Positions 4,190-22,266 of a stretch of DNA of 28,044 bases are shown piece after piece. Each line of letters opens with the position of its first letter. The first letter of the stretch is position 1. The translations under genes were made by a program, and so were the position numbers. The notes beneath the pieces are model-generated. The model was not told the origin of the DNA, ran no database searches, and was given only the letters and a program-made list of their open reading frames with translations. The DNA comes from an uncultured archaeon (lineage in GTDB: Archaea > Asgardarchaeota > Heimdallarchaeia > Heimdallarchaeales > Kariarchaeaceae): positions 1-28,044 of the forward strand of contig CAZYCQ010000046.1 of NCBI GenBank assembly GCA_964645535.1. The letters run 5' to 3'.

Positions 4190-4552
4190 CTATTCTTTTT
4201 GCAACGTCCGTTTCAGTTTTTCTGTCAAGGTGTTCATGGAACTGTCCTCGATGGGGAAGCGTTGCTCGTTCAGTTGCATTTTCTCCAGAAATGCCTGCTT
4301 CAGGTCGATACCGGAAATGTTTGCAAGTGAAAGAAGATAGATGAAAATGTCAGCGAGTTCACCGGTCAGTGCCTGCCGAAACTCTGGCATCTGTACCGCC
4401 TGTCGGCTCTCCTCAATGGTCAGCCATTGGAACAGCTCCATCAACTCTGCCGCTTCAATGGCTATGGACATTGAGAGATTCTTTGGGGAATGGAATTGAA
4501 TCCAGTTTCTTTGTTCAAGGAAATTATGTAGAACACGTACCAAGTCTTCCAT
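4190..4552 (-). CDS. MazG-like nucleotide pyrophosphohydrolase (dCTP pyrophosphatase-like)
   Basis: R.W.QFHSPKNL.MSIAIEAAEL.E.FQW ... ELADIFIYL..LA....IDL..AF.EKM..NE.RFP. Confidence 0.92.
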   Translation of the reverse strand: MEDLVRVLHNFLEQRNWIQFHSPKNLSMSIAIEAAELMELFQWLTIEESRQAVQMPEFRQALTGELADIFIYLLSLANISGIDLKQAFLEKMQLNEQRFPIEDSSMNTLTEKLKRTLQKE

Positions 4553-4573: not shown

Positions 4574-5719
4574 TTAATCAAAAATTCGTTTCAGGACATC
4601 CATGGAGGCATTGATGATATGATAATCACCTTCCTTCAATCGGTTGCCATCGATGTCCACCCCTTCCAAAGAACCGGGATTGATGGATTGGACAATTTCC
4701 GAGGGAATGAACAGTGTCAGGACTGCGAGGGTTTTGCCATGGAAACGGGGGTCTTTGAATTCACCTTCCATCAGAACAGGAATGGCAAGTCCAATAAAGG
4801 TATTTTTCAGGTGAATGGCAAAGAGGCTGGGATGAAGTAAGGAAAAGTCGGTTGTTTCATGACCGAAACCTGCAATGGAGACCACGGTGGCAGCCAATTG
4901 ATCTATGATTTCCTGTGAGAGGTCTTGTCTTTCTGCAAATTGATCAGAGACCTGCATTGCTTCAGGACCCATATCCGCCATTCTGAAAAGCATCCAACCT
5001 ACAATTCCGTCTTCTAGGAAACCTTGATAGGCAGGAAGAGAAGGAAAACGCTGAATAAAATAGACAACCAAGACAAGGGAGAATAGGCTGATGGCAATGA
5101 CACCAATCTGAATACCGAGATATGTTTTTTCGGACTGGGATAGCAAGGGGAAGCTAATGGTGGATATGATAAGGAGAATTATCATTCCCAACAGGGAAAA
5201 TAACCACTCAAAGGAAGGGAGCTCAAAATAGTCTTTCAGTTGCTGATTTAGACGATAAAGATTTTCCAGAACGACAAGCGAGGAAAGAAATGAGAAGATT
5301 GCGGGAAGGAATAAAATCATGAAATCGGCGGAGAAGGAAGGCTCATTCTCCAAAAATGAGAAAATTTCAGGATATATGCTGCCGGAGATCCCGAAGGAAA
5401 TGAGGATCCCCGCAGAAATGATGGTGGTACGTTGCCAAAATCTCAGCAATCTTGTCTTTTCCGGGAAATTGAATGCCAAAATCACGATTGAGATTCCTAT
5501 CAGCGAGGTACTGAGAGCAAAAAGGGAGATCTGGGCATTTCCTTCGAGCCCATATCCGATACGACCAATGATGCCGGCAAATGTGAGAAGAAAGGAGCTG
5601 AAGACCATGAACAGAATTGAAAAGTGTGACCGAACCAGCAGGAAGACGGTCAGAACTGCATTGATGGTGAAGGAAACCAGAATGGCCAAGACAAAAATAA
5701 GTTCAAATAGAATCATCAT
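4574..5719 (-). CDS. 7-TM membrane protein with C-terminal cytoplasmic longin/uDENN-like domain (pair 1, gene B)
   Basis: Seven hydrophobic segments in aa ~3-222, then a soluble alpha/beta domain starting 'GIVGWMLFRMADMGPEAM'; shares motifs with 5726..6898. The CDS is solid; the fold is inferred. Confidence 0.6.
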   Translation of the reverse strand: MMILFELIFVLAILVSFTINAVLTVFLLVRSHFSILFMVFSSFLLTFAGIIGRIGYGLEGNAQISLFALSTSLIGISIVILAFNFPEKTRLLRFWQRTTIISAGILISFGISGSIYPEIFSFLENEPSFSADFMILFLPAIFSFLSSLVVLENLYRLNQQLKDYFELPSFEWLFSLLGMIILLIISTISFPLLSQSEKTYLGIQIGVIAISLFSLVLVVYFIQRFPSLPAYQGFLEDGIVGWMLFRMADMGPEAMQVSDQFAERQDLSQEIIDQLAATVVSIAGFGHETTDFSLLHPSLFAIHLKNTFIGLAIPVLMEGEFKDPRFHGKTLAVLTLFIPSEIVQSINPGSLEGVDIDGNRLKEGDYHIINASMDVLKRIFD

Positions 5720-5725
5720 AGGTCA

Positions 5726-6898
5726 TCAACTCGCATACACCCTTTGAATGACCGATACGATCAGATCGGTGATCCTTCCCGTTTCAAGAGAATGTTCCAG
5801 CTCGGTCAGTGAGGAGACATGTCGGAAGATACCTCCTTTGATATTCTTTAGATCCTCAATCAGCGGGACATAACCTGTCGGAATGATGATGGTGAAAACC
5901 ACCTGTTGAGGACGGGGGATATGGCAGAGGCTGACCGGGATGGAGATGACGGTGAAATCCGGGTGTGAGGGAAGAGGAAAGATCAGGATAGGGGGATTCT
6001 CAGCATGTTGCAACATAAGCATCATTGTTCCGGCAGATCCAAGAATGACATCAATTTGAAAGCCATAATGGGTCAGGAAATCAGTGGAATAGGCCAGTGG
6101 TTGGGGTATGATATTTTCAACCTTGAAAACGGCCCAGCCGATTTGACCGTTATCCACCAAGATGCGAGTATTGAATCTTTTGAAGTAGAGAATATGCGGA
6201 AATCTGAGTTGGGGATAGGTGACGACAATGAAGACAATGGTGTTGATCAATTCAGCGACAAGAAACGGTTCAAGGGAACCGAGTTTTGCAAAGATGCCTT
6301 GGGACAGAACAAGAAGAACAAAAAGGCCGATAAGCGCATGTCGAGGATGCAATTGCTGTGAAAATCTACCAGGAATGGAAATTGTAGTACCTAGCAGAAA
6401 GATATAGTATGTGACAATGAAGAAGAGAGCTGAAAGAAAGGAAAAGGCGGAGAACAGGGGGGAACGGACAAGGATGATTTTGCCATCAGTACCCACCACG
6501 GATCCGACAATCAGAGAGGAGTGGGAAATGGCACTCAACAGTAGAAAGCCTATAGTAACAGAAAGCAGTGTGTAGGTTGATTTGGCAAAGATTGCCAATC
6601 TGCTGTTATGGCTTCGTCGGTCAAAATGGAAGAGCAATCCAATAAGAACGGAATAGCTGAAAATATCGCCCAAAATGGAGAAAAGGGAAAGTGAATTGCC
6701 GTCAATAGGTAATGGCACTATGAGAAACAGGTTCACGAACACTGAATAGGCATAAAGCGTAAGGAGGAAGAGAAAACGCAAGGCAACAGAATTCCTCGTT
6801 TTGAAGTGTTCCCTCACTAGCAGAATGGCATAGCCACATATGATCAGAAGATTGACCAGCCAAAGGAGGAGGGAGAAAAAGACATTCACAACTCTCAA
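5726..6898 (-). CDS. 7-TM membrane protein with C-terminal cytoplasmic longin/uDENN-like domain (pair 1, gene A)
   Basis: Seven hydrophobic segments, a beta-hairpin-like TM4-TM5 loop (IVGSVVGTDGKIILVR), then 'RFP...LVDNGQIGWAVFKVENIIPQP'; 6 bp from its paralog. Confidence 0.6.
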   Translation of the reverse strand: MRVVNVFFSLLLWLVNLLIICGYAILLVREHFKTRNSVALRFLFLLTLYAYSVFVNLFLIVPLPIDGNSLSLFSILGDIFSYSVLIGLLFHFDRRSHNSRLAIFAKSTYTLLSVTIGFLLLSAISHSSLIVGSVVGTDGKIILVRSPLFSAFSFLSALFFIVTYYIFLLGTTISIPGRFSQQLHPRHALIGLFVLLVLSQGIFAKLGSLEPFLVAELINTIVFIVVTYPQLRFPHILYFKRFNTRILVDNGQIGWAVFKVENIIPQPLAYSTDFLTHYGFQIDVILGSAGTMMLMLQHAENPPILIFPLPSHPDFTVISIPVSLCHIPRPQQVVFTIIIPTGYVPLIEDLKNIKGGIFRHVSSLTELEHSLETGRITDLIVSVIQRVYAS

Positions 6899-6928
6899 GT
6901 TCAGAAAAAAGAAAGGTATTTTTAACTT

Positions 6929-7411
6929 CTATGACGAAGTTCTCCAGAAAACCAAACTGACGCCGAAAAGAGTGTAGCTGGTCACAACAGAGCCCATACA
7001 GTAGAGACAGACCAGTTTGAGAACCGCCACTTGAAGGAAAAGAAGGATGGTCGAGACCAAGAAACCTACAGAAGAAAGGATCAGAAAAAGATTGGAGAGG
7101 GAGAGTCCTTTAGGTTGGATAAAGGCATTCACTTTGGCATCAAAGAAAAGGATTGCAAAGAATGTGAGATAGTACAAAAGACCGAAGAGAGAGATCGGAA
7201 GGCCAAAAATGGTGCTGTATTGCGAGGTGGTGACTTGACCGCAATCGACGGGAATACCGAAGAAGCTTTCAATGAAGGGGGTAGTACAGGCGGCAGGATC
7301 ATTGTAATGGCTGTTCACCAAATAGAGGGTGTCGACAATACCAGCCCCGGAAGCAAGCATAAGCAAGAGTTGAGTTGTCTTATATTTCATGAGTTCATGT
7401 TGGATGTTCAC
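6929..7411 (-). CDS. Vitamin K epoxide reductase (VKOR) family protein
   Basis: Loop cysteines (AAC...DCGQVTTSQYS.IFGLP.S.FG), about 4-5 TM helices, active-site CLYC. Confidence 0.92.
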   Translation of the reverse strand: MNIQHELMKYKTTQLLLMLASGAGIVDTLYLVNSHYNDPAACTTPFIESFFGIPVDCGQVTTSQYSTIFGLPISLFGLLYYLTFFAILFFDAKVNAFIQPKGLSLSNLFLILSSVGFLVSTILLFLQVAVLKLVCLYCMGSVVTSYTLFGVSLVFWRTSS

Positions 7412-7429
7412 TATTTGAACACGTTGGTG

Positions 7430-8116
7430 TCATTTCGTCTCTTTTTTGATTGGGGTATCTTCGGGAGGGGGGGATGAATCGGTCATCTTGAAGTAGATGA
7501 AGATGAGCAGGGAGGCGATAAATCCCGCTTGGACAATGGGATTTCCGAAAAAGTCTCCGAGAAGGCTTGATCCACTGCCTGATGGGTTGCCGACTTTATT
7601 GAGATCGGAGATTCTTTCCGTATTCTCACCGGAAATGTAGGTGTCAATGCCAGTTATCAGGTCGGATAGTGGGGTGAGGCCACGCCAAGAGGTTGCAGGA
7701 TAGCCATTGGTATCGAACAGGATCATGGTGGGTGTTCCTTGAACGTTGTATTTGGTTGAAAAGGCACCTTGAACATCCCGACCAACTTCCCATTTGATCG
7801 GATGATCAACCATGAAGCTCTGGATCTCTTCTACCGTATCCTGCGGAACTGCCAAAGACAGCATGGTCAGGTTGTATTCAGGTTTGCTGGCTCTTAACTC
7901 ATACAGTTGTTCCAGATCTGGATGTTGCTGGATACAGAAATGGCAGTCATGGCGGAAGACCTCAACAAAGAGCCATTTGCCCTGATAGGTGGAAAAGCTT
8001 ACCTGATTGCCGTCGAGATCCAAATAGGAAAGATTGATCTGGTATGACCCTTGGGCAGTAGAGCCCATTGAGGCAAGGATAAGAAAGGCAAGAGGAATGA
8101 CCACAAGATATTTCAT
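7430..8116 (-). CDS. Exported TlpA/ResA-like thioredoxin-fold oxidoreductase with C-terminal membrane anchor
   Basis: Signal peptide; 'DLDGNQVSFS.YQGK...V.VFRHDCHFC' (CxxC); cis-Pro 'YNVQGTPT.ILFD..G'; C-terminal TM (IVQAGFIASLLIFIYF). Confidence 0.85.
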   Translation of the reverse strand: MKYLVVIPLAFLILASMGSTAQGSYQINLSYLDLDGNQVSFSTYQGKWLFVEVFRHDCHFCIQQHPDLEQLYELRASKPEYNLTMLSLAVPQDTVEEIQSFMVDHPIKWEVGRDVQGAFSTKYNVQGTPTMILFDTNGYPATSWRGLTPLSDLITGIDTYISGENTERISDLNKVGNPSGSGSSLLGDFFGNPIVQAGFIASLLIFIYFKMTDSSPPPEDTPIKKETK

Positions 8117-8343
8117 CAGTTTGGAGTGGAAACTTCCAATTTAAAAACCTAGAAGTTCGTCCAATGGGAACCGCGAAACTTTTTCCATGAACTGAAAAAC
8201 AGGCTTTGAGCAGGCTTACCAATGGAAGGAACTAAAGCATCTACAGTTTGGAAAAATTCTGGCATGATCACAACTTAAGGAGAAAAGTTCCGTTCCCTTG
8301 GAAGTAAAGACTAATAAGGTGATGAAAAATGTAATTAAATGAA

Positions 8344-8805
8344 ATGACTGTCAAGAAACAACCGACACTTGCATCCTTGTTGCGGCAGGGCATATCCTTT
8401 GAGGAAATGGAGACACAGGGCTTGGAGACGGATGAATCCTTTCAGACACATCATGAAAGACAGGTGTTTGGATGGATCGGATTTTGGTTGACAATTACCA
8501 TCCTGTCCTATGTAGGTCTATGGATATTTGGAAGAAAAAGACAATTGGTTGATTTCATGAAGTCCGCAACCTTGACGGTCAGCTTTATTCTGATGGGCAT
8601 AGTGGCCATTTTTGGCTATTCCAATTATGTATTGGGTACTAGACCCATCCTACCATTGACGGCATACACTTCAGGAAAGGGTGCCATTGAAGTGGAGGTT
8701 CAGGCACGAGATCAAATGTTCAGCCGTTTTCTGGGTCCTTTGGTCGGTATTGCATTCATTGTCCTGCTTTCGGCCATTGATGTTCTTCTCATGAAGGGAG
8801 GATGA
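8344..8805 (+). CDS. Hypothetical membrane protein (3 TM)
   Basis: 153 aa ATG ORF with a polar N-terminus and three hydrophobic segments; no family recognised. Confidence 0.65.
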   Translation: MTVKKQPTLASLLRQGISFEEMETQGLETDESFQTHHERQVFGWIGFWLTITILSYVGLWIFGRKRQLVDFMKSATLTVSFILMGIVAIFGYSNYVLGTRPILPLTAYTSGKGAIEVEVQARDQMFSRFLGPLVGIAFIVLLSAIDVLLMKGG

Positions 8806-8827
8806 GAATGCAAGAAGTGTGCATTGA

Positions 8828-9778
8828 TTGCATGGCTCATTTCGACATTTTTTATACGTCTCTGCACCAAGGAAAAGAAAGGGGTATGCAAAGATAAACA
8901 GATGTGCACATTGCGGGGTTCCCACGGCCCTTCCATTCACTTGCAACCTATGCGGCGAGAAACATTGTCCTGCACACCGATTGCCGGAGCACCATGATTG
9001 TCCCAATGTAGGAATCTACCAGAGTGAGGAATATAGGCGGGCAAAAATCTATCAAATGCAGAGCGAGCCGCCTCAGACCCACATGTTTGTCGGAAGTGAG
9101 GCGGTTCCCCGGCGAACGAACACGCAAGAAATGGAACGAAAACGGTATGAACGGCTATTGTTCATGAATCCGGCACTCATTTCCTTTGGCAGGGAGGCGG
9201 TGGATCTTGTCATTGCCTTTCTGCTGATTTTTTGGGGCATCAGTTTCTATGGGATTTTTACGGGTAGTGAAACCTTTGTGGATGCTTTGGCGTTCGGACT
9301 TGCAGTTGCACCCGCCTTCATCCTGCATGAGCTCGGTCACAAGTACATGGCAATCAATTACGGTAGGTACGCACGGTTTGCCATGATCAAGAATTTTGCG
9401 GTTTTGACCTTCATGATGGGGTTCTTTCCATTCTTCATCGGTACTCCAGGAGCGACCATGATTCTTGGAAGACCTCCCAACAGACGCGAGAACGGTCTGT
9501 TCAGCATTGCAGGCCCAGGAGTCAATTTTGTCCTTGCTGTTTTCTTTATGTTGGTGCACCCCTTGGCAGCCAATGGACCGGAATTCGTGTACCTGTTTGT
9601 TGATGTCTCCATTTTTGTCAATATCATCTTAGGACTGTTCAATCTTCTTCCCTTTTCCATCATTGACGGCAAGAAGATCTGGAATTGGTCGAGAACGGTC
9701 TGGATACTCTGTGTACTGGCATTCGTATTCCTTTTCATGGTATATCTCCCGATTTCTTTCTATTTGAGTTCCGTATAG
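8828..9778 (+). CDS. AN1-type zinc finger fused to M50 (site-2 protease) intramembrane metalloprotease
   Basis: AN1: CAHC..LPFTCNLCGEKHCPAHRLPEHHDC. M50: HELGH, SIAGPGVN, FNLLPFSIIDG.K. Start uncertain (TTG 8828). Confidence 0.88.
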   Translation: MHGSFRHFLYVSAPRKRKGYAKINRCAHCGVPTALPFTCNLCGEKHCPAHRLPEHHDCPNVGIYQSEEYRRAKIYQMQSEPPQTHMFVGSEAVPRRTNTQEMERKRYERLLFMNPALISFGREAVDLVIAFLLIFWGISFYGIFTGSETFVDALAFGLAVAPAFILHELGHKYMAINYGRYARFAMIKNFAVLTFMMGFFPFFIGTPGATMILGRPPNRRENGLFSIAGPGVNFVLAVFFMLVHPLAANGPEFVYLFVDVSIFVNIILGLFNLLPFSIIDGKKIWNWSRTVWILCVLAFVFLFMVYLPISFYLSSV

Positions 9779-9814
9779 CCAAAACATTTTTCTCGTTGGA
9801 GTCATGGCCAACTC

Positions 9815-10186
9815 ATGGATGAAAGATCGACTGCTGGAATTGTGGGCTTCCTCTATGGATTGATTTTTTCGGCATCTTTCGGCTTTCTTGTGGAACTGCT
9901 TCAGGTTTTCATCAACATTTTGCTTTTTGGATTGCCGATATTCGCCGCCTTTTATTTCCCGAAACAATTTCCACAAAGCTATAGGCAGGCCAACCGCTTC
10001 AGCTATCTTGGAATTCTGCTCGGAGGAATCATAAATGCAGCCATTATCCTTCAAGAAGCGACAGGATTCGCAGCCATTGCCGCGATCCTGATCATTCCCA
10101 TGACCATTATCTACATCATCGGCTATGCATTCGTCATCTTCCTTCTTCATCGTCTCCTTGTCCATCCGGATCGGAATTCACTTTGA
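9815..10186 (+). CDS. Small hypothetical membrane protein (~4 TM)
   Basis: 123 aa, mostly hydrophobic, co-oriented with flanking genes. Confidence 0.65.
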   Translation: MDERSTAGIVGFLYGLIFSASFGFLVELLQVFINILLFGLPIFAAFYFPKQFPQSYRQANRFSYLGILLGGIINAAIILQEATGFAAIAAILIIPMTIIYIIGYAFVIFLLHRLLVHPDRNSL

Positions 10187-10227
10187 GGTCTAAAAAAGAT
10201 TAATTAGTTCCAGGTACAGTAAAACAT

Positions 10228-10617
10228 ATGCAAGCACGCAAGATTTCCCTCATAGGTGGTTTTGCCTATGGCTTTGCATACCTACCGATTTATTATTGGA
10301 TCATTTCGTTTTTTATGGGATTTCGACTTGACGATGCAGGAATCTTTGCAGGATATATTTGGATTGTATCAGCACCCATTATCTCGGGTTTCCTTTTTCG
10401 CAAGTCGATCAGGAATGCGGAAAAGGTGATTCAAGCAAGCTTTTGGGGAGCTATGGTTTATGGACCCGTTACAGCAGGGGTTCAGCAACTCATGGGATGG
10501 ACACGAGATATTTCCGTAGAATTATATCTGGCGTTAAACATTCTGCTAGCAATCGTCTACATTTTTGCAACCCTGTTGGTCATGCAGATAGGAGAATGGA
10601 TGGGAAAAGCCAATTGA
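10228..10617 (+). CDS. Small hypothetical membrane protein (~4 TM)
   Basis: 129 aa, four hydrophobic segments; similar size and topology to 9815..10186 (both have an early 'GF.YG'). Confidence 0.65.
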   Translation: MQARKISLIGGFAYGFAYLPIYYWIISFFMGFRLDDAGIFAGYIWIVSAPIISGFLFRKSIRNAEKVIQASFWGAMVYGPVTAGVQQLMGWTRDISVELYLALNILLAIVYIFATLLVMQIGEWMGKAN

Positions 10618-10679
10618 TGGGCATTTTTCCCGCTTGCAAGGTCAAGGTTCTAAACATCAACAGTTTCATTGGAGCTTGA

Positions 10680-11627
10680 ATGACGTATTTCGGGGTACAG
10701 ATCGAGCCTCAATTCGGATACAACCTTCAACAGATCAGTGACATCTGCATTGCAGCTGAACAGAATGGCTTCAGTCATGCATGGTTCAGCGATCATTTCA
10801 TGCTGACCAAGGATTCCACCGATGTCATAGCCTATGAGGCTTTCGCAACCATGATGGCAGCTGCCTCATGGACCAGCAATCTGAGAATTGGTTCCTTGGT
10901 GTTCTGCAATAACTATCGGCATCCAGCAGTCCTTGCCAAGCAGGTCGTGACCTTGGATCATTTTTCTGGAGGACGTGTGGAATTCGGCTATGGAGCTGGA
11001 TGGAAACAGATCGAGTATGAAGCCTATGGCATTCCCTTTCCATCTGCAGGAACAAGAATCCGGATGATGAGTGAGGGATTGGATGTGATCCGCAAGCTTT
11101 GGACAGAGGAATGTGCAAACTATGAAGGCGAATTCTACCGTCTTAAAAATGCGGTTGCATATCCCAAACCGATGCAGGAACCTCATCCCCCTATATGGGT
11201 GGGGACAATGGAAGCCAAGGAGAAAATGCTCAACGTGATTGCCCAAAAGGCAGATGGAATTAACATTGCATGGTCCTTCTCCCCAGAAGTCTACCAGGAA
11301 AAATTGGAGAAAATCAATGCATTCTGCGAAAAGCATGGAAGAGACCCTTCAACCTTGAAGAAATCCTATGGGGTATGGACACGGATCTATGCTGATGAAG
11401 AGGAGAAGATGAAGGCGTGGAAAGAGATCTGCGAACGACGGGGGATTACCATGGATCAATTGGAAAAACGGATGGAAGGAGCTCTCCATGGCACTGTTGA
11501 GGAGATTGTGGACAAGCTCAAGGCATATAAGCAATTGGGCATTACCCACTTCATTTTCATGTTTCCACAGAACCAAGAGATCGAATCCATGGAGATATTT
11601 GCCGACAAGGTCATCTCAAAAGTGTGA
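10680..11627 (+). CDS. Luciferase-like monooxygenase (LLM) class, probably F420-dependent oxidoreductase
   Basis: AEQNGF..AWFSDHF, LRIGSLV..N.YRHPAVLAK...TLDH.SGGRV.FG.GAGW...EY.AYG, PKP.Q.PHPPIWVG. Confidence 0.9.
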   Translation: MTYFGVQIEPQFGYNLQQISDICIAAEQNGFSHAWFSDHFMLTKDSTDVIAYEAFATMMAAASWTSNLRIGSLVFCNNYRHPAVLAKQVVTLDHFSGGRVEFGYGAGWKQIEYEAYGIPFPSAGTRIRMMSEGLDVIRKLWTEECANYEGEFYRLKNAVAYPKPMQEPHPPIWVGTMEAKEKMLNVIAQKADGINIAWSFSPEVYQEKLEKINAFCEKHGRDPSTLKKSYGVWTRIYADEEEKMKAWKEICERRGITMDQLEKRMEGALHGTVEEIVDKLKAYKQLGITHFIFMFPQNQEIESMEIFADKVISKV

Positions 11628-11693
11628 AATCTTATCTTCCGATTGACTGGGAAGACTTCCAAAGGTTGAAAACGATCAAGGAGATCCAGACAT

Positions 11694-13416: not shown

Positions 13417-13551
13417 GCAATTTCATTCGGAGAGGTGAATTAAAAGGTTATGATTTCATTGATAAGAATATATGAATTTTCATTGTAATAGCTGTTTTCC
13501 GATACAAATGAGAGAGCTGAGACTTTATTAGGGGATGAAGGCTACAGGAAA

Positions 13552-14460
13552 TTGGTGCATCCCCTAAGTCATAGGTTGAAGGAACAGAACGACCATCACC
13601 TCTTCAATAGGAGATGGTTGGTTGATCTGAAAGAAGCAGATCTTTCCCTACCCGCATATGCAATCATCAACGGATGGATGGCCTATATCGAAAGCAACCA
13701 ATGGTTTCAGGACGAACTCAAGGGAAAGGTCAATATCTTCTCCTACGAAGCCCGCGGCACCGGAAAATCACCCAAGAACGGTCGGTTGGATCCCGTACAG
13801 TATGCCATCGATGCAGACAGAATCATTGGAGAAGCATTCAAAGAATATGATCAATTGGCAAAGGAACAGGGAATAACTCCAGGATCAAAAATCATCCAAG
13901 CCAACTGCATGGGAACCCTCCCATTGGCAACCATGTTTGCCGCAAAGTTGCCTTTGAGCAGAAAGGTGGATGGAGTGGTGCTTCTTTCACCAGTCAGTAC
14001 CTTCAATCTTCCATGGAAGATCAAGTTCGGTTTCTTCGTGCCCCCGTTGCTTGCGAAAGTGCTGCGCAGGTATGTGGCACCGATCGTGGTTCGAAGGATA
14101 GCCCCCAAGGAGGAATCGGAACGATCACGGCAGGAATCACTCAAACGGTTGAACAGCATCGATCTAGGTGTCGCAGGAAAACAGGCGCGGGAAGTGCTGT
14201 GGAAAGCAGACGTTACCCCATTCTGGAAGACCATCAAGGTACCGGCACTCATTCTTGTTTCGGATTCGGATCCCCTTGTCCGACTGGAGGAATCCGTTGA
14301 GGTTTATCACCGCCTCCCGTTTCCCATCTGGATGCAAATGACCGCTCCAGACCATTTGATTCTTGAAGACAACATTGACAAGGTCAAGGTGTTCCTACCG
14401 GAATTTGCGGCAAATCCTTGGAATTTTTACGAAAAGAACAAGCATCGAAAGCCTATGTGA
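13552..14460 (+). CDS. Alpha/beta-hydrolase fold protein with Cys at the nucleophile elbow
   Basis: INGW (oxyanion region), YEARGTGKS, elbow IQANCMG, GVVLLSP, IKVPALILVSDSDPLV (acid), APDHL (His). Confidence 0.78.
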   Translation: MVHPLSHRLKEQNDHHLFNRRWLVDLKEADLSLPAYAIINGWMAYIESNQWFQDELKGKVNIFSYEARGTGKSPKNGRLDPVQYAIDADRIIGEAFKEYDQLAKEQGITPGSKIIQANCMGTLPLATMFAAKLPLSRKVDGVVLLSPVSTFNLPWKIKFGFFVPPLLAKVLRRYVAPIVVRRIAPKEESERSRQESLKRLNSIDLGVAGKQAREVLWKADVTPFWKTIKVPALILVSDSDPLVRLEESVEVYHRLPFPIWMQMTAPDHLILEDNIDKVKVFLPEFAANPWNFYEKNKHRKPM

Positions 14461-15745
14461 ATACTTCCTTGACGACAGTGTCAACTTCCTTGGGAAATTC
14501 CTCAACCGCCCCGCTTGAGCTGACACCATAGGTCTGGATCAATTCCCGCAAGTGGTTGGAAAAGATATGCAGCGATTGCCTGACATAGAAACAGGGAGCG
14601 GTGACAATCACACCGACAGTCCAAACCTTGCCGTTGTTTACCACCTTTTCAACAAGAAAGGCACGATCTTCAAGTTCGACTTCATTGAAGTTTGATTCCT
14701 TGCCTGCGATCTCGTTGAAAACCGTAAAAATGGCGGAGATCACACTGCCTTTCAGGTAGGCTGCGGTTGCACTTTCCATACCTCGATCTTTCTTGAGAAA
14801 GTCATAGGAGTAGACTGTAACGCCGGATTCATTGACTACCAGCAATTCAAGGACAGGAGTTGCCAAAACCGAGATGTAGTTGGGATTACGTGTATAGATC
14901 ACCATCAGAGGAATCAAAAAGGTGATCAGGATGAGCGGAAACTGTACATTCATGGGAAGATTCAATGCCGTATCAATTGCGAACAGGATCATGCCCATGG
15001 TAAGCCCTGCAAGACTGGCAAATTGAATCTGCGCATCCATGGTCACCCCGCCTTCAAGAATATCATAGTTTTTCAGGCTCTGGTAGTACGAGACCGTTCC
15101 GAAAACGGATGCAAAAAGCATTCCGCCCAAAAACAGAAGAGTGCTCACGAAAAAGGCCAATAATCCCATGTGGATATAGTCTTCTCCTGAAAGAATACTG
15201 GCAAGGCCGACTACAAAGGCAGGGGAGATGGAAGCAATGACCGGAACCACACGTTTCAAGGGTGGATAGGGGTTGGTCTGGAACTCAAGATGCAGATAGA
15301 AAACAAAAACAAACATGGCCATCAGTTGAAACCAGATCGAATCATGAAGCCAACTGTTGATTGTTCGAGTACCGTTGGCCAGTAGGTCAATAATCCCCGA
15401 CCAGAGAAACATCAAGCCACCTAGCGAGATTGAACAGATGAATAGCAGGTTATTTACCCGATTGGACCGCCGTATCGATGTTGAAAGCATCAGCCCTACG
15501 AAAGTGAAGAGAAGTGCTGCACCAATAAAATGGTAAGGAACAAAGGTGCCGATGGCCCACCATCTGAAATCGCTCCAGATCTTGCTCACGACCGGGATGG
15601 AAAGTATTGCGGTTTCCAGAACAATCAAGGCAACCGCTACGAAGAACGGAGTGCCGACTGTCTCAACAAACCCTTTTTCTGTTTTTGCTCCACTGTTTGT
15701 CAACACCACGGTGTTGTTTTTTGACCGAATAAAGTTAGTGGACAA
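14453..15745 (-). CDS. 7(+1)-TM membrane protein with C-terminal longin-like domain
   Basis: About 8 hydrophobic segments, then 'LELLVVNESGVTVYSYDF...LKGSVISAIFTVFNEI...FNEVELEDRAFLVEK...TVGVIV...VRQSLHIFSNHL', a beta-beta-alpha-beta-beta-beta-alpha-alpha longin pattern. Confidence 0.7.
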   Translation of the reverse strand: MSTNFIRSKNNTVVLTNSGAKTEKGFVETVGTPFFVAVALIVLETAILSIPVVSKIWSDFRWWAIGTFVPYHFIGAALLFTFVGLMLSTSIRRSNRVNNLLFICSISLGGLMFLWSGIIDLLANGTRTINSWLHDSIWFQLMAMFVFVFYLHLEFQTNPYPPLKRVVPVIASISPAFVVGLASILSGEDYIHMGLLAFFVSTLLFLGGMLFASVFGTVSYYQSLKNYDILEGGVTMDAQIQFASLAGLTMGMILFAIDTALNLPMNVQFPLILITFLIPLMVIYTRNPNYISVLATPVLELLVVNESGVTVYSYDFLKKDRGMESATAAYLKGSVISAIFTVFNEIAGKESNFNEVELEDRAFLVEKVVNNGKVWTVGVIVTAPCFYVRQSLHIFSNHLRELIQTYGVSSSGAVEEFPKEVDTVVKEVFT

Positions 15746-15883
15746 AAAGACAGGCTATGCCCAATATTTACGCAAAAAAATATATTTTTGTAGCAGACTG
15801 CCCAACCCAAGAGATTGATGCAGCATTTTTGTCAGAGGATTGGACTAGCAATAAATAGCAAAAAAGCATGTATTTTAACCGAT

Positions 15884-16996
15884 ATGAAAAGAATAGTTAT
15901 CCTGGCAACCCTATTGATCTTTGCCTCGGCCATTGCACCAACTATAGCAGAAGAATCCGCCAAAAACGGACTGTTCCCCACAGACAAGGGATCATCGGTG
16001 GCGGTCAATGTCACTCTGACCCATGATGGTTTGGTCAATGGTGTGCCGACAATGCAGGTCAACAAGACCTATCATCTGAATGTCACCTTGAAAGTGGAGG
16101 CATTGGGACAGGACGTACAGGACATCCACGATATCACAGTCACCACCAGCATGACCAAGACCAATGTCCTCCAAAAAACCACGTATTATCACTCAGGGAT
16201 CTATGTAGATACCGAATCCACTCTGAAAGCAGGAGATACATGGTATGCCACCATTGAGATTGTCCCGTTGGGACCTGCCGAAACTGTAGAGGGCGTTACC
16301 CTTTCAGTAGTCGTCAGCCTCAAGGAAAATGTCAAGCTGAATCTCGATCCAAAGACAGAGTTCAATCCTTTCAATTATGAGATCATCCTCAATCCCGACG
16401 GCAACACATTCACCATCACCGATTTTGCTGATGGAGTGAAGGTCAATCGCTCAGTTGTCACCTTTCTCAGCAAGGAGTCGCAAGTCAATTTCACCATAGT
16501 GTTCGGTGCAGAGGAAATCAACAACGAGACCGAAAAACCAGTCGTCAGATCTAATGTCAAGTACAGCCTGTACTTCTACCTGAAGGTGCTCAAACTCGGT
16601 CCAGATGCCGAAGACGTTCATGATATCGAAATCTCACTGCTCATGGTCGATGAATCATTAACTGATATTCTCCCCAATTCGGACTCGAAATATTACTTCG
16701 CCATGACTTTGGCCACGGATGCCAAATTGGGTGAAGGGGACAGCATTGAACGTTCCTCGATGCTGTATATTTCCTCCAATGTACAAGATACCAATCCAAA
16801 ACTGAAAGTTAATGTCAAGGCAAAGGAAGGAGTTCCCAATTTTATCGATCCCACCTCCACCATTGCAGATTTCAACATTGAACTCCATTTGAACCCCAAG
16901 GAGAAGACAACAGATACAGTGGGTGCACCAATTCAATACACCTTCCTTCCCATTCTGGCAATGATTGCCTTAATTCAGCGCAGAAGACGGATATAA
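15884..16996 (+). CDS. Secreted cell-surface protein with two tandem beta-rich (Ig-like) repeats and a C-terminal CTERM-type sorting tail
   Basis: Signal peptide from ATG 15884 (MKRIVILATLLIFASAIAPTIA); internal duplication; tail 'TTDTVGAP.IQYTFLPILAMIALIQRRRRI'. Confidence 0.75.
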   Translation: MKRIVILATLLIFASAIAPTIAEESAKNGLFPTDKGSSVAVNVTLTHDGLVNGVPTMQVNKTYHLNVTLKVEALGQDVQDIHDITVTTSMTKTNVLQKTTYYHSGIYVDTESTLKAGDTWYATIEIVPLGPAETVEGVTLSVVVSLKENVKLNLDPKTEFNPFNYEIILNPDGNTFTITDFADGVKVNRSVVTFLSKESQVNFTIVFGAEEINNETEKPVVRSNVKYSLYFYLKVLKLGPDAEDVHDIEISLLMVDESLTDILPNSDSKYYFAMTLATDAKLGEGDSIERSSMLYISSNVQDTNPKLKVNVKAKEGVPNFIDPTSTIADFNIELHLNPKEKTTDTVGAPIQYTFLPILAMIALIQRRRRI

Positions 16997-17048
16997 AGAC
17001 GAATTGAAGACCAATTCATTTTTTAATTGAACAACCTCCCTTGGGTAC

Positions 17049-17732
17049 ATGTACAACTATCAGATAGTCGGAGGAGAAACCTTTGCAGAACTGCATGTCC
17101 AACTGAATCCAGGAGAGGCAATCAGGGCAGAAACCGGTGTCATGTCCTACATGGACGGAACTGTGCAGATTGAGACTTCGTCCGGAGGGATTCTTACAGG
17201 GATCAAACGCAAGTTTTCAGGGGAATCCTTCTTCCTGAACACTTTTACAGGACCTGGAAAGATCGTTTTCGCCCCACCTTTTCCCGGTTCAATTCAGGCC
17301 TTTGAGATCACTCCCGACAGTGCCATGATTCTCCAACAGGGATCCTATCTTGCGGGAAGCCTCAATGTCAAGATCTCATCCAAATGGGGAGGCTTCCGCA
17401 GTATCTTTGCAGGGGAAGGGGCATTCCTGACACATGCCTCCGTGGAGGAGGGAAAGGGGATTTTCTTCACAGGTGCCTCGGGAATTGTGGTTCGCCATGA
17501 AATCCCACCTGGACAGGAATTTGTGGTGGATACCGGCATCTTCTTCGCCACTACCGAAAACGCCCAATTTAAGCTCTCAAGAGTGGGAAAAGGAAAATCC
17601 TTTCTTTTTGGTGGCGAGGGACTGGTTCTTCGGTTCTTCGGACCTTGTGTAGTCTATACCCAATCCCGGGTGCCGTTCCATTTCCTTTTCCGCAGTGGAT
17701 CTGGAGGAAGTGCTTTGGATCTGATCACTTGA
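17049..17732 (+). CDS. AIM24 / TIGR00266 (DUF124) family protein
   Basis: L.V.LNPGE.I.AE.G.M.YM, KR.FSGES.F.N.F, FAP.FPG, Q.G.YLA, F.GEG.F, VVDTG, FGGEGLV.RF.GP..VY.QSR. Confidence 0.92.
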   Translation: MYNYQIVGGETFAELHVQLNPGEAIRAETGVMSYMDGTVQIETSSGGILTGIKRKFSGESFFLNTFTGPGKIVFAPPFPGSIQAFEITPDSAMILQQGSYLAGSLNVKISSKWGGFRSIFAGEGAFLTHASVEEGKGIFFTGASGIVVRHEIPPGQEFVVDTGIFFATTENAQFKLSRVGKGKSFLFGGEGLVLRFFGPCVVYTQSRVPFHFLFRSGSGGSALDLIT

Positions 17733-17781
17733 CCATTGCCTAAAGAATTATCTTATAATTTCAAGACACTTCATTCCTCCA

Positions 17782-18900
17782 ATGGATAGGAAATGGAAAC
17801 TTGGATTGGCGACCATTTTGGCGATCATGCTGATTTCCGCAGGAATTGTTGTCATCCTTATCCAGAAAACCGATACCTTGGAAAACGAAAGCTATAGGTT
17901 GAGCCGGGCATTCACCCATGATTTTGAGAATCCGGTGGAGATTGTTCATCATGGAGACGCCTACTATATTCTTGAACAGAAAGGACGAGTGCTGATGGTC
18001 AAGGAGGGAAACTTTCCGATCAACCAGACTCCAATAGTTGCACTCGACATCAGCACCAAGGTGGATTTCGGAGGGGAAAAAGGGCTTTTGGGGATTGCCT
18101 TCCTCAATGACAAGGTCTATCTGGATTACACGGCACCGGATCCATTAAGAACAGTGGTTGCAGAATATAAGCTCAATGCAGATGGCACAATTTCAGGCAT
18201 CTCTGAACGAATCTTGCTCCAAGTTGAACAACCGGCCTCAAACCATAATGGAGGACATCTTGAGATCGGTCCGGATGGCATGCTCTATATTGCCTTGGGA
18301 GATGGCGGAAGTGCTGGAGATCCATGGGGAAATGGACAAAATCCAAAAACATTGCTGGGAAGTATCCTGCGGATCGACCCGAATGGAGAACCCTATGGCA
18401 TCCCCAAGGACAATCCATTCTATGGCAATACCAACGGGTTCAGGGAGGAAATCTTCGCCTTCGGTCTTCGCAATCCTTGGAAGTTTTCATTCGATGGAAA
18501 CACCATCTGGGCTGGAGATGTAGGACAGAACAGTTATGAGGAAATTGGAATCATTGAAAAGGGAGGAAACCATGGCTGGAATCTCAAAGAAGGATTTGAA
18601 TGCTATGCCGTTACCCCCTGTGCAAATACCTCGCTGGTTGATCCATTGTACGCCTATGGACGCGGTATGGGCGCTTCAGTGACCGGAGGGTATGTGTATC
18701 GGGGAAACACCTTGAATTTGGAGGGAAGGTACATCTATGGAGACTTTATTAGCGGCCGAATTTGGGCATTTTCCCGCACAACAGGAAATATTGAGCTATT
18801 GGACACCGATCTTCTCATCTCCTCCTTTGGATTGTCCTCTGATGGAGAAATTTTCGTCGTAGATTATCGGGGAACCATCTTTCTGTTACAGGAAAAATAA
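17782..18900 (+). CDS. Membrane-anchored PQQ-dependent sugar dehydrogenase (GSDH beta-propeller)
   Basis: N-terminal TM; E.GLLGIAF, NHNGG, GPDGMLYIALGDGG, GSILRID, GLRNPW, GDVGQ..YEEI, GGNHGW, SVTGGYVYRG. Confidence 0.92.
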   Translation: MDRKWKLGLATILAIMLISAGIVVILIQKTDTLENESYRLSRAFTHDFENPVEIVHHGDAYYILEQKGRVLMVKEGNFPINQTPIVALDISTKVDFGGEKGLLGIAFLNDKVYLDYTAPDPLRTVVAEYKLNADGTISGISERILLQVEQPASNHNGGHLEIGPDGMLYIALGDGGSAGDPWGNGQNPKTLLGSILRIDPNGEPYGIPKDNPFYGNTNGFREEIFAFGLRNPWKFSFDGNTIWAGDVGQNSYEEIGIIEKGGNHGWNLKEGFECYAVTPCANTSLVDPLYAYGRGMGASVTGGYVYRGNTLNLEGRYIYGDFISGRIWAFSRTTGNIELLDTDLLISSFGLSSDGEIFVVDYRGTIFLLQEK

Positions 18901-18984
18901 GATGCAAAATACAAACACCGAAAACAGACATGTCACCATATGATATATGTGCAAGCTTAAGTATTCCTTCATAGAAGAAAAGAC

Positions 18985-19227
18985 ATGGAAATCCAAGATT
19001 TTGCAGGAGAATATCTCTGTGCCAACTGCAATACCGAATTTGAAGCACCCCACCATTGTGGAAGGGGAATGATTGTCATCAAGGAGAACGGAAGCTTCAC
19101 TTGGACGTGCTGGAAAGGAGAACATGCGCCGTGCTGTGGCAAGCCATCCGTCATCCCCCTTGAATCATGTTGCCAGCAACAGCAAATCATTCCGAAAAAT
19201 GTCAAAGAACAATTGAAATCATTGTGA
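18985..19227 (+). CDS. Small Cys/His-rich metal-binding protein
   Basis: 80 aa with 8 Cys and 3 His (CANC, HHCG, C..HAPCCG, SCC); ATG start about 25 nt after CTTAAGTA. Confidence 0.7.
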   Translation: MEIQDFAGEYLCANCNTEFEAPHHCGRGMIVIKENGSFTWTCWKGEHAPCCGKPSVIPLESCCQQQQIIPKNVKEQLKSL

Positions 19228-19271
19228 CGCCGCAGAAAAGGTTTTTCAAGAACAATTCCCAGAAAATCCAC

Positions 19272-20099
19272 ATGCCAATTGTCTATGCAACTGTGCTTCC
19301 ACATGGGGCATTGGTTCTTAAACCGGAGGATGATATGAGCAGAAAACTACGTCAAGCCATGGAAACTGTCGCTCAGGAAGTGGCAACGCTCAATCCGGAT
19401 CTGATCCTCCTCAGCACCCCACATGGACTGATGCTCCAGCAGCATTTCGCTCTCTACCATTCCCAAAAAGGAAAGGGAACTGCCGAATGGCAGGGAGAAT
19501 ATCAAGAATTCAAGCTTGAAGTGGAAATGGCAATCGATACCACCAAAGAACTGGCAGGCTTGCTCAAAGCAGAGCTTATCACCCCGCATGTTCCAGTCTT
19601 CCCAATTGAAATGGCATGGGGAGAGATCATCCCGCTCTATTTCATTTACCAGAAGATCAGCCCCAACGTCGTCATCCTTTCCCATCCCGCTCGCAGATAT
19701 GATCATCCTGAGACCATGGACGACGAACTGAAAGAGATAGGCAGAACCATCACCGGATTCTTTGAGAAACGACCGGAACAGGTGGCAGTGATCATCAGCG
19801 GGGATTGGGCACACACCCATCAGGAAAACGGCCCCTACGGATATTCAGAAACCGCAGAACCATTTGACAAGGCCATCGCAGACTGGCTCAGCCATCTGCA
19901 TCTCAAAGACAACATCTGGCAAAAGGCAAGGAAAAGGGCTGCGGAACTGGTCAATACCGCCCTTTCCTGCGGCTATACCGGCCTCATGCTACTTGATGGC
20001 ATCATTCAGGGAGAATGGACAGGCAGGCTCCATGAAATCGGAGCACCAAGCTACTACGGAATGGCAGTGGCCAGCTATGCCCGTACAAAGAATGGATAG
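19272..20099 (+). CDS. LigB/Memo-like (class III extradiol dioxygenase superfamily) protein
   Basis: VLPHG, PDLI.LSTPHG, WGE.IPL.F, ISGDWAH.H...GPYG, FD, SCG, SYYG; ATG 19272 is the likely start. Confidence 0.82.
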   Translation: MPIVYATVLPHGALVLKPEDDMSRKLRQAMETVAQEVATLNPDLILLSTPHGLMLQQHFALYHSQKGKGTAEWQGEYQEFKLEVEMAIDTTKELAGLLKAELITPHVPVFPIEMAWGEIIPLYFIYQKISPNVVILSHPARRYDHPETMDDELKEIGRTITGFFEKRPEQVAVIISGDWAHTHQENGPYGYSETAEPFDKAIADWLSHLHLKDNIWQKARKRAAELVNTALSCGYTGLMLLDGIIQGEWTGRLHEIGAPSYYGMAVASYARTKNG

Positions 20100-21124
20100 A
20101 AACATCTACGAACCAAGAGCTCGAAATCAATGGGTTCCCTTTTCTCCAGACAGGACAGCAATCGGGCAAGGCAGATGCGCCCAATCCTATTTCCCGAACC
20201 CTTCAACATGACCAATCCCGTTAGCTGGCGGGTCGTGAGAAGGACTTCCACCTCATCGGATCCGAAGAAAATAGGTCGTGGTTGCCCTTTTCCCAAGGAT
20301 CGCAATTGATCCATGGAAGAAAGGAACGGGAGGAATTCTGGAACCTCTGTCGGATAGGATGCCAGTGGGGTTTTATCATCCTTGCTGATGACAAGTATAT
20401 ATTCCACAGATCCAAGAACCGGAAGAGTTCTCAACCGTATCACATAATTACCCATATGCAGGATCGAAGAGAGCAGGAAGGGAATGAACACAAAATTGAG
20501 AGGCATCACCAATACATCGAACAATCGTTCCAAGATAACGACAAATGGACCGAGCATGAAACTCAGAATCGCAACAAAGGTGATCCATCCGACTTGAGAA
20601 ATTGCTTGGGGATCCATCTCCAAAAGAGCAAAGACGAACCCGACCAATCCAATGAAATTAAAGAGCAAAATGCCAAACGCGAAGAGATAGCCACCTTCAA
20701 TAGGATCATAATAGACAACTCGAACTGTTCCAAGATCCAAATGCAAGGACGGTACCATACCCCCTATGGAAATACCCACAAGAAAGGAGAGCAGGGCAAT
20801 TGAACCGATTGGAAAATCCTTGACAGAAAGAAGATATAGGTTATAGAAGACCACACCAATGGCTGAAAACAAAAAGGTCAGTTGCAACCATTCATTGGAA
20901 GGTTGAAACGGCAGAGATTTGACATAAAGATGAATGAAGATCAGATTTTCGTAAAGAATGACAGGCAGACCAAGGAATGAGGCCACCAAAAGGGTCGCAA
21001 AGGGAACATCCGTATACCCCGCATTCCATCTGAGCAAAAAACGAACGGTTGCAACTAGAAGAAGCAGAACCGCAACCGCGGTAAGTACAAGAACACTCCA
21101 GCCGGCGATGAGGAAAGGGCCCAT
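20075..21124 (-). CDS. 7-TM membrane protein with C-terminal longin-like domain (pair 2, gene B)
   Basis: Seven hydrophobic segments, then 'VEYILVISKDDKTPLASY...LTGLVML.G.G.RIGRICLARLL'; clear paralog of 21172..22266. Confidence 0.6.
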   Translation of the reverse strand: MGPFLIAGWSVLVLTAVAVLLLLVATVRFLLRWNAGYTDVPFATLLVASFLGLPVILYENLIFIHLYVKSLPFQPSNEWLQLTFLFSAIGVVFYNLYLLSVKDFPIGSIALLSFLVGISIGGMVPSLHLDLGTVRVVYYDPIEGGYLFAFGILLFNFIGLVGFVFALLEMDPQAISQVGWITFVAILSFMLGPFVVILERLFDVLVMPLNFVFIPFLLSSILHMGNYVIRLRTLPVLGSVEYILVISKDDKTPLASYPTEVPEFLPFLSSMDQLRSLGKGQPRPIFFGSDEVEVLLTTRQLTGLVMLKGSGNRIGRICLARLLSCLEKREPIDFELLVRRCFYPFFVRA

Positions 21125-21171
21125 TCATATCCTTTATCCTGAATTGCTTAATAAGAATTGTCAGATTCCAT

Positions 21172-22266
21172 TCAGATAGAATGATGGACAAAAACAGTGT
21201 CAGGATCGGGACCGTTGCATCCGAAAAAGGGAAAGAAGGAACGATGGAGCAGATCCGCAAAGCCAGGATCGTCCAATTCCTGTCCAGTCGTCGCCAGAGA
21301 CATCAACAGCCTTCTTGCACAATACCTGCCAATCTTCTCACCACCCTCGCTGAGCACGAGCAGAACCATAAGTGATCCATGAAATAGATGAACCAAGTTC
21401 CGAGTACGAAACGGCTCATTCCTGCCGAGCGTTTCAACCAATGCCGTCTGTGCGGCAAGAAAAGCCATGCCATCCAAGGTGAGCTGGGTATGACTGCCTT
21501 CAGGATGATAGCCGGCAAGCACAACATTCCGTTCGGTGTCCAGAACGGCAAGCCCGATGATGACGGCACGAACCGAATAGCCACATCCATGATACCGATA
21601 AAGAATCAGGAGGATAAAGGAAGGAACAAGAAAAGGCAGGATGAGAAGATTGCTCGGTCTTTCAAGAAGAAGAACAACCCTAGTGAAAAAGACTGCAATG
21701 GAACCGCTAAAGAACAGAACTGCACTGAAAAGATAGGGAAAGGAAAGGCGGGCACCTTTGCTTTTTGAAAGGAAAAGACCTACAAGCCCCACCAAATTGA
21801 AAAGACCTAGACTGCCGACATACAGCACGCCGGCAATCACCGGCGAATAATAGAGCGGAGGAGTGGTCAGAGGATCAAACTGCACCCCGGCAACCATACC
21901 ACCGATACCTATCCCCATCAAAGCAGCCAGCACCAGCAATCCAGAAAAGGGAAAGTCCTCAAGCACAAGAAACTGCAAGTTGTAAAGGATGATCCCAAAT
22001 GAACTCAACACAAGAAAAACCTTCAGCACCGTCACCGAAAAGGAGATCGGCAATCGCATTACCTCAAGATGCACAAAGAGAAGATTCTCATAGACCAGGA
22101 TGGGTTGTCCGAAAAGAAGAGCAAGAAGAAACAGCCCGTTGGAGACATCCACATATCCCTTTCGCCAGCGAAAAAGATATCTGATGACAGAAACAATGGT
22201 TCCTCCAAAAAACAAAACCGTCAGAAACACAATCCACAATCCAAGATCCGTCCAACGTTCCACCAC
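21172..22266 (-). CDS. 7-TM membrane protein with C-terminal longin-like domain (pair 2, gene A)
   Basis: Shared motifs with its neighbour: R.L.RW..GY.DV, G.P...YENL.F.HL.V..LP, YNL..L...DFP, GI.IGGMV, YY.P, FN..GLVG, P.N....PFL, IGR.C..RLL, R.F.PFF. Confidence 0.6.
   Translation of the reverse strand: MVERWTDLGLWIVFLTVLFFGGTIVSVIRYLFRWRKGYVDVSNGLFLLALLFGQPILVYENLLFVHLEVMRLPISFSVTVLKVFLVLSSFGIILYNLQFLVLEDFPFSGLLVLAALMGIGIGGMVAGVQFDPLTTPPLYYSPVIAGVLYVGSLGLFNLVGLVGLFLSKSKGARLSFPYLFSAVLFFSGSIAVFFTRVVLLLERPSNLLILPFLVPSFILLILYRYHGCGYSVRAVIIGLAVLDTERNVVLAGYHPEGSHTQLTLDGMAFLAAQTALVETLGRNEPFRTRNLVHLFHGSLMVLLVLSEGGEKIGRYCARRLLMSLATTGQELDDPGFADLLHRSFFPFFGCNGPDPDTVFVHHSI

Follow-up and report, generated by a model that had tools for sequence, protein, structure and literature searches.

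In eukaryotes, longin domains of the TRAPP, Mon1-Ccz1, CPLANE and adaptor-sigma type pair into platforms on which small GTPases dock and, in many cases, exchange nucleotide. Longins of the FLCN, NPRL2, SMCR8 and C9orf72 type belong to heterodimeric complexes that activate GTPases, in which they are the catalytic subunit. According to a survey from 2025, these four are distinguished by an arginine finger and by a GP motif directly ahead of the second strand; the motif is absent in FNIP2, NPRL3, TRAPP and adaptor longins and recurs in Heimdall 'FLCN/SMCR8-type' longins (PMC12290439). Asgard genomes contain dozens of small GTPases and >100 longin/roadblock proteins, the genes for which are rarely in operons, so that the matching of regulators to GTPases, and the way in which either gains access to the membrane, are a standing question (PMC10933270). 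Here we describe five proteins, A to E, encoded in a stretch of 28,044 nucleotides (contig CAZYCQ010000046.1, assembly GCA_964645535.1; hereafter the window) from an uncultured archaeon of the Kariarchaeaceae. Each consists of a bundle of transmembrane (TM) helices followed by a soluble tail, which we assign to longin folds of two different classes in four of the five proteins.

In such an architecture, the fusion of a receptor-shaped domain to a longin gives membrane access by construction. Asgard structural clusters labelled 7TM/GPCR, one of them class C GPCR-like, have been published with longin tails unmentioned (10.64898/2026.10.28.762692), and our literature search found no published description of a 7TM-longin fusion. 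What is new in the window is that the two longin classes occur next to each other, and that a protein of catalytic type and a partner lacking the motifs form a conserved pair.

The five open reading frames (ORFs) had been singled out in a sequence-only reading of the window, which proposed that they encode receptor-like proteins of one kind, with about seven TM helices, a longin-like tail and no catalytic output. Its coordinates and lengths proved exact, and all five genes lie on the minus strand. Searches of all five proteins against Pfam and NCBIfam likewise found no curated domain and no kinase, cyclase, helix-turn-helix or other catalytic output. Conservation and confident models rule out that these are chance ORFs.

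Longin tails of proteins C, D and E

In protein C (14453..15745, minus strand, 430 aa), the longin tail comprises aa 297-430. This numbering is that of the long form; an alternative start at nt 15706, which lies 13 codons further in and is the start in database relatives, yields a protein of 417 aa. The longin order of strands and helices that had been read from the sequence of this tail is borne out by the AlphaFold2 model, where DSSP, in the numbering of the model, assigns strands at 285-291 and 297-302, a helix at 313-334, strands at 342-344, 349-357 and 360-368, and helices at 373-393 and 407-415. The modelled tail of E has the same β-β-α-β-β-β-α-α order.

A Foldseek search with the C tail against the PDB had solely longins as top matches (TRAPP Trs23/Bet5/Trs20, BLOC-3, AP sigma, Mon1-Ccz1 and zeta-COP), with roadblocks (MglB, LAMTOR, LC7) ranking after them. 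VIA-align, which is independent of Foldseek, aligned longins over residues 284-417 of the 417-aa form, with Z-scores of 13.5 for Trs23 (3cue_A; root-mean-square deviation (rmsd) 3.0 Å over 128 residues), 12.0 for CPLANE (7q3d_C), 11.9 for TRAPPC (7b6d_C), 11.1-11.5 for Mon1-Ccz1, 11.3 for sedlin and 11.2 for the VAMP7 longin. Roadblocks obtained Z-scores of 10.1-10.8, in alignments that end near residue 392 of 417. Because these alignments miss the last helix, the longin topology suits the modelled tail better than the roadblock topology. A Roadblock/LC7 architecture was also rejected for C and E on the basis of the models, in which the first strand directly follows the last TM helix without a preceding soluble helix and the domain closes with two C-terminal helices, whereas roadblocks have an N-terminal helix and lack the last longin helix. 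What the C tail has in common with MglB/MglA and the C-terminal roadblock of Rag GTPases is the α-β core and the logic of a dimeric GTPase platform (Z 10.3-10.8 to MglB and an Asgard roadblock); fusions of GTPases to tails, a further point of likeness, are present in the host genome.

The superposition of the C tail onto the TRAPP core Bet5/Trs23 (TRAPPC1/C4), Mon1-Ccz1, CPLANE Fuzzy-Inturned and BLOC-3 (Z 11-13.5) includes both C-terminal helices, and the tandem paralog pairs of the window recall the heterodimers that these longin guanine-nucleotide exchange factor (GEF) platforms form in eukaryotes. Unlike in those complexes, a single longin is here part of a membrane protein, no TRAPPC3-like or other partner of a complex was identified and sequence similarity is sub-threshold: paralogs and relatives of C, standalone ones included, matched Fuz_longin_1, Intu_longin_1, Sybindin, Longin and Robl_LC7 at E-values of 3e-4 to 0.08, and a profile of 34 C-type tails had weak matches to LC7, MON1, Trs23 and Bet5 among PDB sequences (E 6e-4 to 0.02).

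Protein E (21172..22266, minus strand, 364 aa) has its tail at aa 236-343 in the AlphaFold2 model, for which Foldseek ranked the longin of AP-1 sigma 30th, a weak match with a TM-score of 0.51 by target. The fold of protein D (20075..21124, minus strand, 349 aa; longin-like tail at about aa 228-349) was assigned through E. In hhalign comparisons, the D/E tails matched the C-type tails with a probability of 76% (E 2.3e-5, 119 columns) and, with a smaller profile, of 68%. A complex prediction for the tails of D and E scored 0.01, which is no answer and counts neither way. Resting on models for C and E and on profile comparison for D, the assignment of the three tails to longin folds of the TRAPP/Mon1-Ccz1/CPLANE/adaptor-sigma type is well supported. 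The looser fit to the longin pattern that had been noted for the tails other than that of C holds for E in its order of strands and helices, for D by profile and for A as a member of the FLCN/NPRL2 class; the tail of B is unclassified.

Protein A and its tandem neighbour B

Protein A (4574..5719, minus strand, 381 aa) has, judging from its ORF, hydropathy and topology, seven TM helices at about aa 3-222 and a tail at aa 229-381 (nt 4574-5035). A-type tails had no significant hhalign match to C-type or D/E tails, also when 25 and 80 sequences were used, and an A-type profile found nothing relevant among PDB sequences. We assigned the class of the A tail via a paralog in the host genome (G000:C1:92342-93268), in which a receiver domain is joined to an A-type tail; a leave-one-out family profile, built without A, finds the A tail at an E-value of 1.3e-9. 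The ESM Atlas model of the paralogous tail (predicted local distance difference test score (pLDDT) 0.72) has as structural neighbours a Heimdall cluster annotated to 23% as Folliculin (TM-score 0.65), Asgard Arf/Ras/Roc GTPases carrying the same domain (0.62), and eukaryotic C9orf72 (0.60), SMCR8 (0.56) and NPRL2 (0.56).

Two short motifs are conserved in the A-type family. In A, the GP motif is G251-P252 within 'MADMGPEAM', its placement before the second strand being derived from alignment, and an Asp-x-Arg motif is formed by D323-x-R325 within 'KDPRF'. Among 25 family members of the order, G251 is present in all 25, P252 in 19, and D323 and R325 in 24 each. In the structural neighbours of the modelled paralog, its GP before the second strand and its near-invariant arginine, the A-type tail resembles FLCN-FNIP, NPRL2-NPRL3, C9orf72-SMCR8 and the Heimdallarchaeia 'FLCN/SMCR8-type' longins. 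Its classification as an FLCN/NPRL2/SMCR8/C9orf72-class longin that bears the published hallmarks of GTPase activation is supported by the model of the paralog, the family profile and the motifs; an activity of this kind is putative. Unlike the FLCN, GATOR1 and C9orf72 complexes, which are soluble and recruited, the longin of A is fused to a seven-helix membrane domain and has no DENN or other C-terminal domain. Besides seven-helix proteins, A-type tails are found on their own, behind receiver domains and behind a region with a weak PAS match. The receiver fusions agree with the NPRL2-like longins fused to two-component domains that have been described in Asgard genomes (Liu et al., 10.1101/2020.10.19.343400).

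Protein B (5726..6898, minus strand, 390 aa) comprises, by ORF, hydropathy and topology, seven TM helices and a divergent tail at aa 239-390. The A-type profile does not pick up this tail (E 8), which has 'NIIPQP' in place of the 'DMGPE' of A and lacks the Asp-x-Arg. B lies upstream of A with a spacer of 6 bp, and D lies downstream of E with a spacer of 47 bp, so that each pair is probably co-transcribed. The genes for B and A are part of the order thioredoxin-like, VKOR, B, A, MazG-like, on one strand and with spacers of 6-30 bp, which is kept in two congeneric genomes (L077, L078) and is therefore found in three genomes. In the window, the thioredoxin-like/AhpC and VKOR genes occupy 6929-8116 (minus strand) and the MazG-like pyrophosphohydrolase 4190-4552 (minus strand), with spacers of 18-30 bp, and the five genes possibly form a unit.

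In both congeners, the ortholog of A retains the GP motif and the arginine, and the ortholog of B is without both. The orthologs have 23-28% identity to the proteins of the window, compared to 35-58% for the products of the flanking genes, which indicates that the sequences of A and B evolve unusually fast. The position of a motif-bearing protein beside a motif-less paralog mirrors the catalytic/non-catalytic pairing in FLCN-FNIP, NPRL2-NPRL3 and SMCR8-C9orf72. By this analogy, B is most likely the non-catalytic partner of A, as FNIP is to FLCN and NPRL3 to NPRL2, and the two proteins would bind one another.

The membrane domain

By hydropathy, A, B, D and E have seven TM segments each. For E, the AlphaFold2 model (mean pLDDT 86) likewise has seven TM helices, at aa 2-226, and after them a compact α/β domain. 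The model of protein C (pLDDT 80) has at its N-terminus an additional TM helix and then a short interfacial helix, ahead of seven further TM helices and the tail; the extra helix is absent from most of the shorter C paralogs and the seven-helix core is common to both forms. The proposed count of about seven helices thus applies to four of the proteins, in the case of E also by model, and not to C, which has eight. We derived the topology from lysine/arginine counts in the loops (positive-inside rule), which is a rule of thumb. By these counts the tails of all five proteins are cytoplasmic, and the N-termini of A, B, D and E are outside, as had been expected for the whole set, whereas that of C is inside.

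A seven-helix bundle with the N-terminus outside, the C-terminus inside and an output module after TM7 is also the layout of 7TMR-DISM proteins, HisKA_7TM proteins and G-protein-coupled receptors (GPCRs). The proteins of the window differ from these in that the output is a longin, not a kinase, a cyclase or a heterotrimeric G-protein interface, and in that sequence does not make them members: none of the five has a Pfam match to 7tm_1/2/3, 7TMR-DISM, HisKA_7TM or bacteriorhodopsin, and 80 C-type relatives yielded one sub-threshold match each to 7TMR-DISM_7TM and HisKA_7TM. In VIA-align, the bundle of E matched class C and class A GPCRs, designed GPCR-like folds and microbial rhodopsins with Z-scores of 12-14.7 (rmsd ~4.0 Å, ~218 residues), and the last seven helices of C matched GPCRs with Z-scores of 10-11.9. 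Because helical bundles reach Z-scores of ~13-14 from their arrangement alone, as stated for VIA-align, this likeness is near noise level, and we read it as the same general up-down arrangement of seven helices in the modelled bundles and not as homology. Rhodopsins were ruled out, since A, C and E lack the retinal lysine in their last TM helix.

In an alignment of 80 diverse C-type members, the conserved columns fall into the tail and the junction between TM7 and the tail, and the TM bundle is variable. Sensor families, in which the output stays constant, show a pattern of this kind; a loosely constrained membrane anchor fits it equally well.

Sequence families and distribution

The five proteins are not of one kind, as the sequence-only reading had treated them. 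D and E align over their full length with 31% identity (BLASTP, E 1e-38), A and B are weakly related (1e-6), and C has no BLASTP match to any of the other four. They fall by sequence into three families (A/B, C and D/E) and, as the A-type tail is of a class distinct from the C, D and E tails, span at least two functionally distinct longin classes.

For a census of the host genome (3.6 Mb, 176 contigs, 89% complete), we ran iterated searches over ORFs called from the whole genome. They yielded ~13-14 full-length C-type, 5 D/E-type and 6 A-type seven-helix proteins, with B as a singleton, which makes ~26 polytopic proteins that carry tails of these kinds. A further ~25 host proteins, soluble or otherwise fused, contain the C-type tail, either standalone (150-200 aa) or combined with a winged helix, tetratricopeptide repeat (TPR) arrays or an FG-GAP/BBS-like propeller. 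The TPR arrays are long, in proteins of 610-720 aa (G000:C50, C24, C15), and the FG-GAP propeller protein (G000:C12:5085-6578) has BBS2/BBS7 sub-family matches at E-values of 1.5e-8 and 1.4e-6. At G000:C80:6380-7494, the TM part and the tail of one C-type protein lie on two overlapping minus-strand ORFs, possibly due to a frameshift or a mis-assembly.

Outside the host genome, word-indexed homology searches yield very few relatives, as hydrophobic words fill the candidate list; we therefore used full hidden Markov model (HMM) searches instead. With the C-type profile, these returned 4134 representative clusters at a cut-off of E <= 1e-3 and, at the stricter cut-off of E <= 1e-10, 1333 clusters; the best 150 matches were mostly full-length proteins of 340-430 aa. 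The profile was matched in 148 of 151 sampled Asgard genomes and in all 72 high-quality ones, usually several times per genome, in a count that takes in tail-only proteins. The occurrence across the host genome and across Asgard archaea that the sequence-only reading had suggested checking is therefore broad. A-type tails were present in all 26 sampled genomes of the order. Clear matches to the D/E type, obtained with a single-sequence query, were confined to the host genome and one congener, and by profile this type looks like a fast-evolving offshoot of the C type.

Small GTPases and the proposed function

We give a probability of roughly 0.5 to the reading that the five genes encode membrane-anchored longin proteins with cytoplasmic tails which dimerise, sense and act on small GTPases. 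We regard the fold assignments in it as well supported, and infer dimerisation, sensing and an effect on GTPases by analogy, from the fold, the motifs and one domain fusion. The tails would pair as homodimers or heterodimers and thereby provide, on the cytoplasmic side of the membrane, a surface for the docking or the activation of GTPases. When and where this surface acts may be fixed by the poorly conserved seven-helix part, through binding of a ligand or lipid or through sensing of the membrane state, and the clients would likely be some of the ~32 Ras/Rab/Arf-like GTPases encoded in the host genome.

The domain fusion is a protein of 312 aa (G000:C67:12627-13565) with an N-terminal P-loop domain, which has sub-threshold GTPase matches, and a C-terminal A-type tail (E 1.8e-8). 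Its gene lies 81 bp upstream of a gene for a Ras-family (Ras/Rab-like) GTPase (PF00071, 1e-56) in the same genome, and the two are a good candidate for a regulator-client pair. Fusions of GTPases to A-type tails also form large Asgard clusters in the ESM Atlas. The stretch G000:C67:12627-15307 (L075:3628-6308) contains, on one strand, the fusion gene, the Ras/Rab-like GTPase gene and a third, uncharacterised ORF, which is cut off by the contig end and has at least 378 aa.

A complete genome of the same order (G015, C1:526500-541500) has three genes of the 7TM-longin type and two for small GTPases together in a stretch of 11 kb, and in a single case a 7TM-longin gene follows a GTPase gene on the same strand at a distance of 484 bp. 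The intervening genes of the region encode integrase-like, AFOR, Ldh_2 and glyoxalase proteins. We did not count this stretch as an operon, since metabolic genes intervene.

Several observations weigh against an action on GTPases or against the classification of the tails. The window contains no GTPase gene, as the sequence-only reading had itself cautioned, and in the host genome only 1 of 26 7TM-longin genes lies <10 kb from a small-GTPase gene, compared to 3.8 expected by random placement. Longins also act outside GTPase control, in SNAREs, in the receptor of the signal recognition particle (SRP) and in adaptor sigma/mu subunits, and the weak conservation of the TM bundle suits a plain anchor as well as a variable sensor. 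The curated Pfam thresholds for longins (Longin, Sybindin, Fuz_longin_1, Intu_longin_1) are not reached, with nothing on A to E at E <= 1, and Folliculin (PF11704) and NPR2 (PF06218) have no match genome-wide at E <= 10. The class of A derives from the Atlas model of a paralog (pLDDT 0.72, TM-scores 0.56-0.65) plus motifs; R325 is a putative counterpart of the eukaryotic arginine fingers (FLCN R164, NPRL2 R78, SMCR8 R147); and the tail of B has no assigned fold or class. As to gene linkage, the same general lack of linkage between GTPases and their regulators, with genes rarely in operons, has been described for a cultured Lokiarchaeon (Tran et al., PMC10933270).

Going further, A and B may constitute a membrane-embedded heterodimeric GTPase-activating protein (GAP), and C, D and E membrane-embedded exchange-factor platforms, an assignment of roles that we put forward tentatively and consider rather unlikely in this full form. 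If it is true, the A-B pair would be a covalent archaeal version of the recruitment of FLCN-FNIP, GATOR1 or C9orf72-SMCR8 to a polytopic lysosomal membrane protein, and Asgard archaea would couple seven-helix sensors directly to the on and off switches of GTPases, before the GPCR-G protein and Rag circuits. The pair bears on the question whether the GAP chemistry of longins predates eukaryotes and works at the membrane. If the seven-helix parts are true sensors, a circuit leading from receptor to GTPase would exist in prokaryotes, namely in those most closely related to eukaryotes.

The alternative that survives best, although we hold it to be unlikely, is that the proteins are membrane scaffolds or adaptors without a GTPase client, in which the bundle is only an anchor and the longin tail forms dimers to which other proteins, perhaps coat-like, ESCRT or cytoskeletal ones, are recruited. 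It is in keeping with the absent gene linkage to GTPases and the weakly conserved TM bundle, and the fusion of C-type tails to TPR, β-propeller and winged-helix domains in the host suggests a general interaction module. The C tail also matches longins of VAMP7, AP sigma/mu, COPI zeta/delta and the SRP receptor (SRX) with Z-scores of 10.4-11.2, close behind the GEF longins; its best matches, however, are the GTPase-binding longins of TRAPP, CPLANE and Mon1-Ccz1. Also against a scaffold are the A-type tails, which retain the GP motif and the arginine, reported solely in GAP longins, and which are fused to GTPase domains in the host genome and in the large Asgard clusters.

Less probable still is a transporter or 'transceptor', whose bundle would move or bind a solute and whose longin tail would regulate the bundle or report its state. 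The lysosomal amino-acid transporters PQLC2 and SLC38A9 recruit longin/roadblock GTPase regulators in eukaryotes. The recruitment of the CSW complex by a PQ-loop transporter is such a precedent (PMC12290439), and in six sequences of the D/E family the intrahelical polar residues E60, N96, N157, R196 and N206 are invariant. Yet sequence points to no transporter family, all top-50 structural matches of the bundles are of GPCR or rhodopsin type, and no internal repeat was seen in the seven helices. Very improbable, finally, are tails that act as small-molecule or protein sensors of the roadblock/profilin/GAF-like α-β class and gate a channel-like bundle unrelated to GTPases. In favour of such tails are the language-model neighbours of the A tail in the Atlas (SpoVT_C/GAF and PocR clusters, scores 0.76-0.78) and the roadblock matches of the C tail (Z 10-10.8). 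These Atlas scores are below noise, however, the structure search with the paralog of A led to longin GAP families, and longin matches cover the whole C tail, which the roadblock matches do not.

Gene neighbourhoods

The window was found only in two DNA runs of a single hot-spring metagenome study, and no RNA run is listed for it. C has orthologs with conserved neighbours in Heimdallarchaeota metagenome-assembled genomes. It lies between the genes for an α/β hydrolase and for a secreted, C-terminally anchored protein, an arrangement kept in a relative with 64% identity (L050). The anchored protein (15815-16996, plus strand, 393 aa) is transcribed divergently from C; it has a signal peptide, a β-rich region with internal repeats and a hydrophobic anchor at the C-terminus, the last residues of which are RRRRI, and no Pfam match. 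Its pairing with C is kept in the Heimdallarchaeota relative (L050:4692-5816).

Upstream of E, at a distance of 73 bp and on the same strand, is the gene for a RIO-type kinase (PF01163, 2e-19; 22340-23506, minus strand) with an N-terminal extension of ~190 aa. Further upstream follow the genes for a Yip1-domain membrane protein and its 33%-identical paralog (23660-24202 and 24276-24839, both minus strand), and these three genes are possibly transcribed together with E and D as a single unit. A search for the segment of D, E and the RIO kinase in the relative locus L050 found no match to RIO, D or E. At 8828-9778 (plus strand), an AN1-type zinc finger is joined to an M50 site-2 protease domain, which is an unusual pairing.

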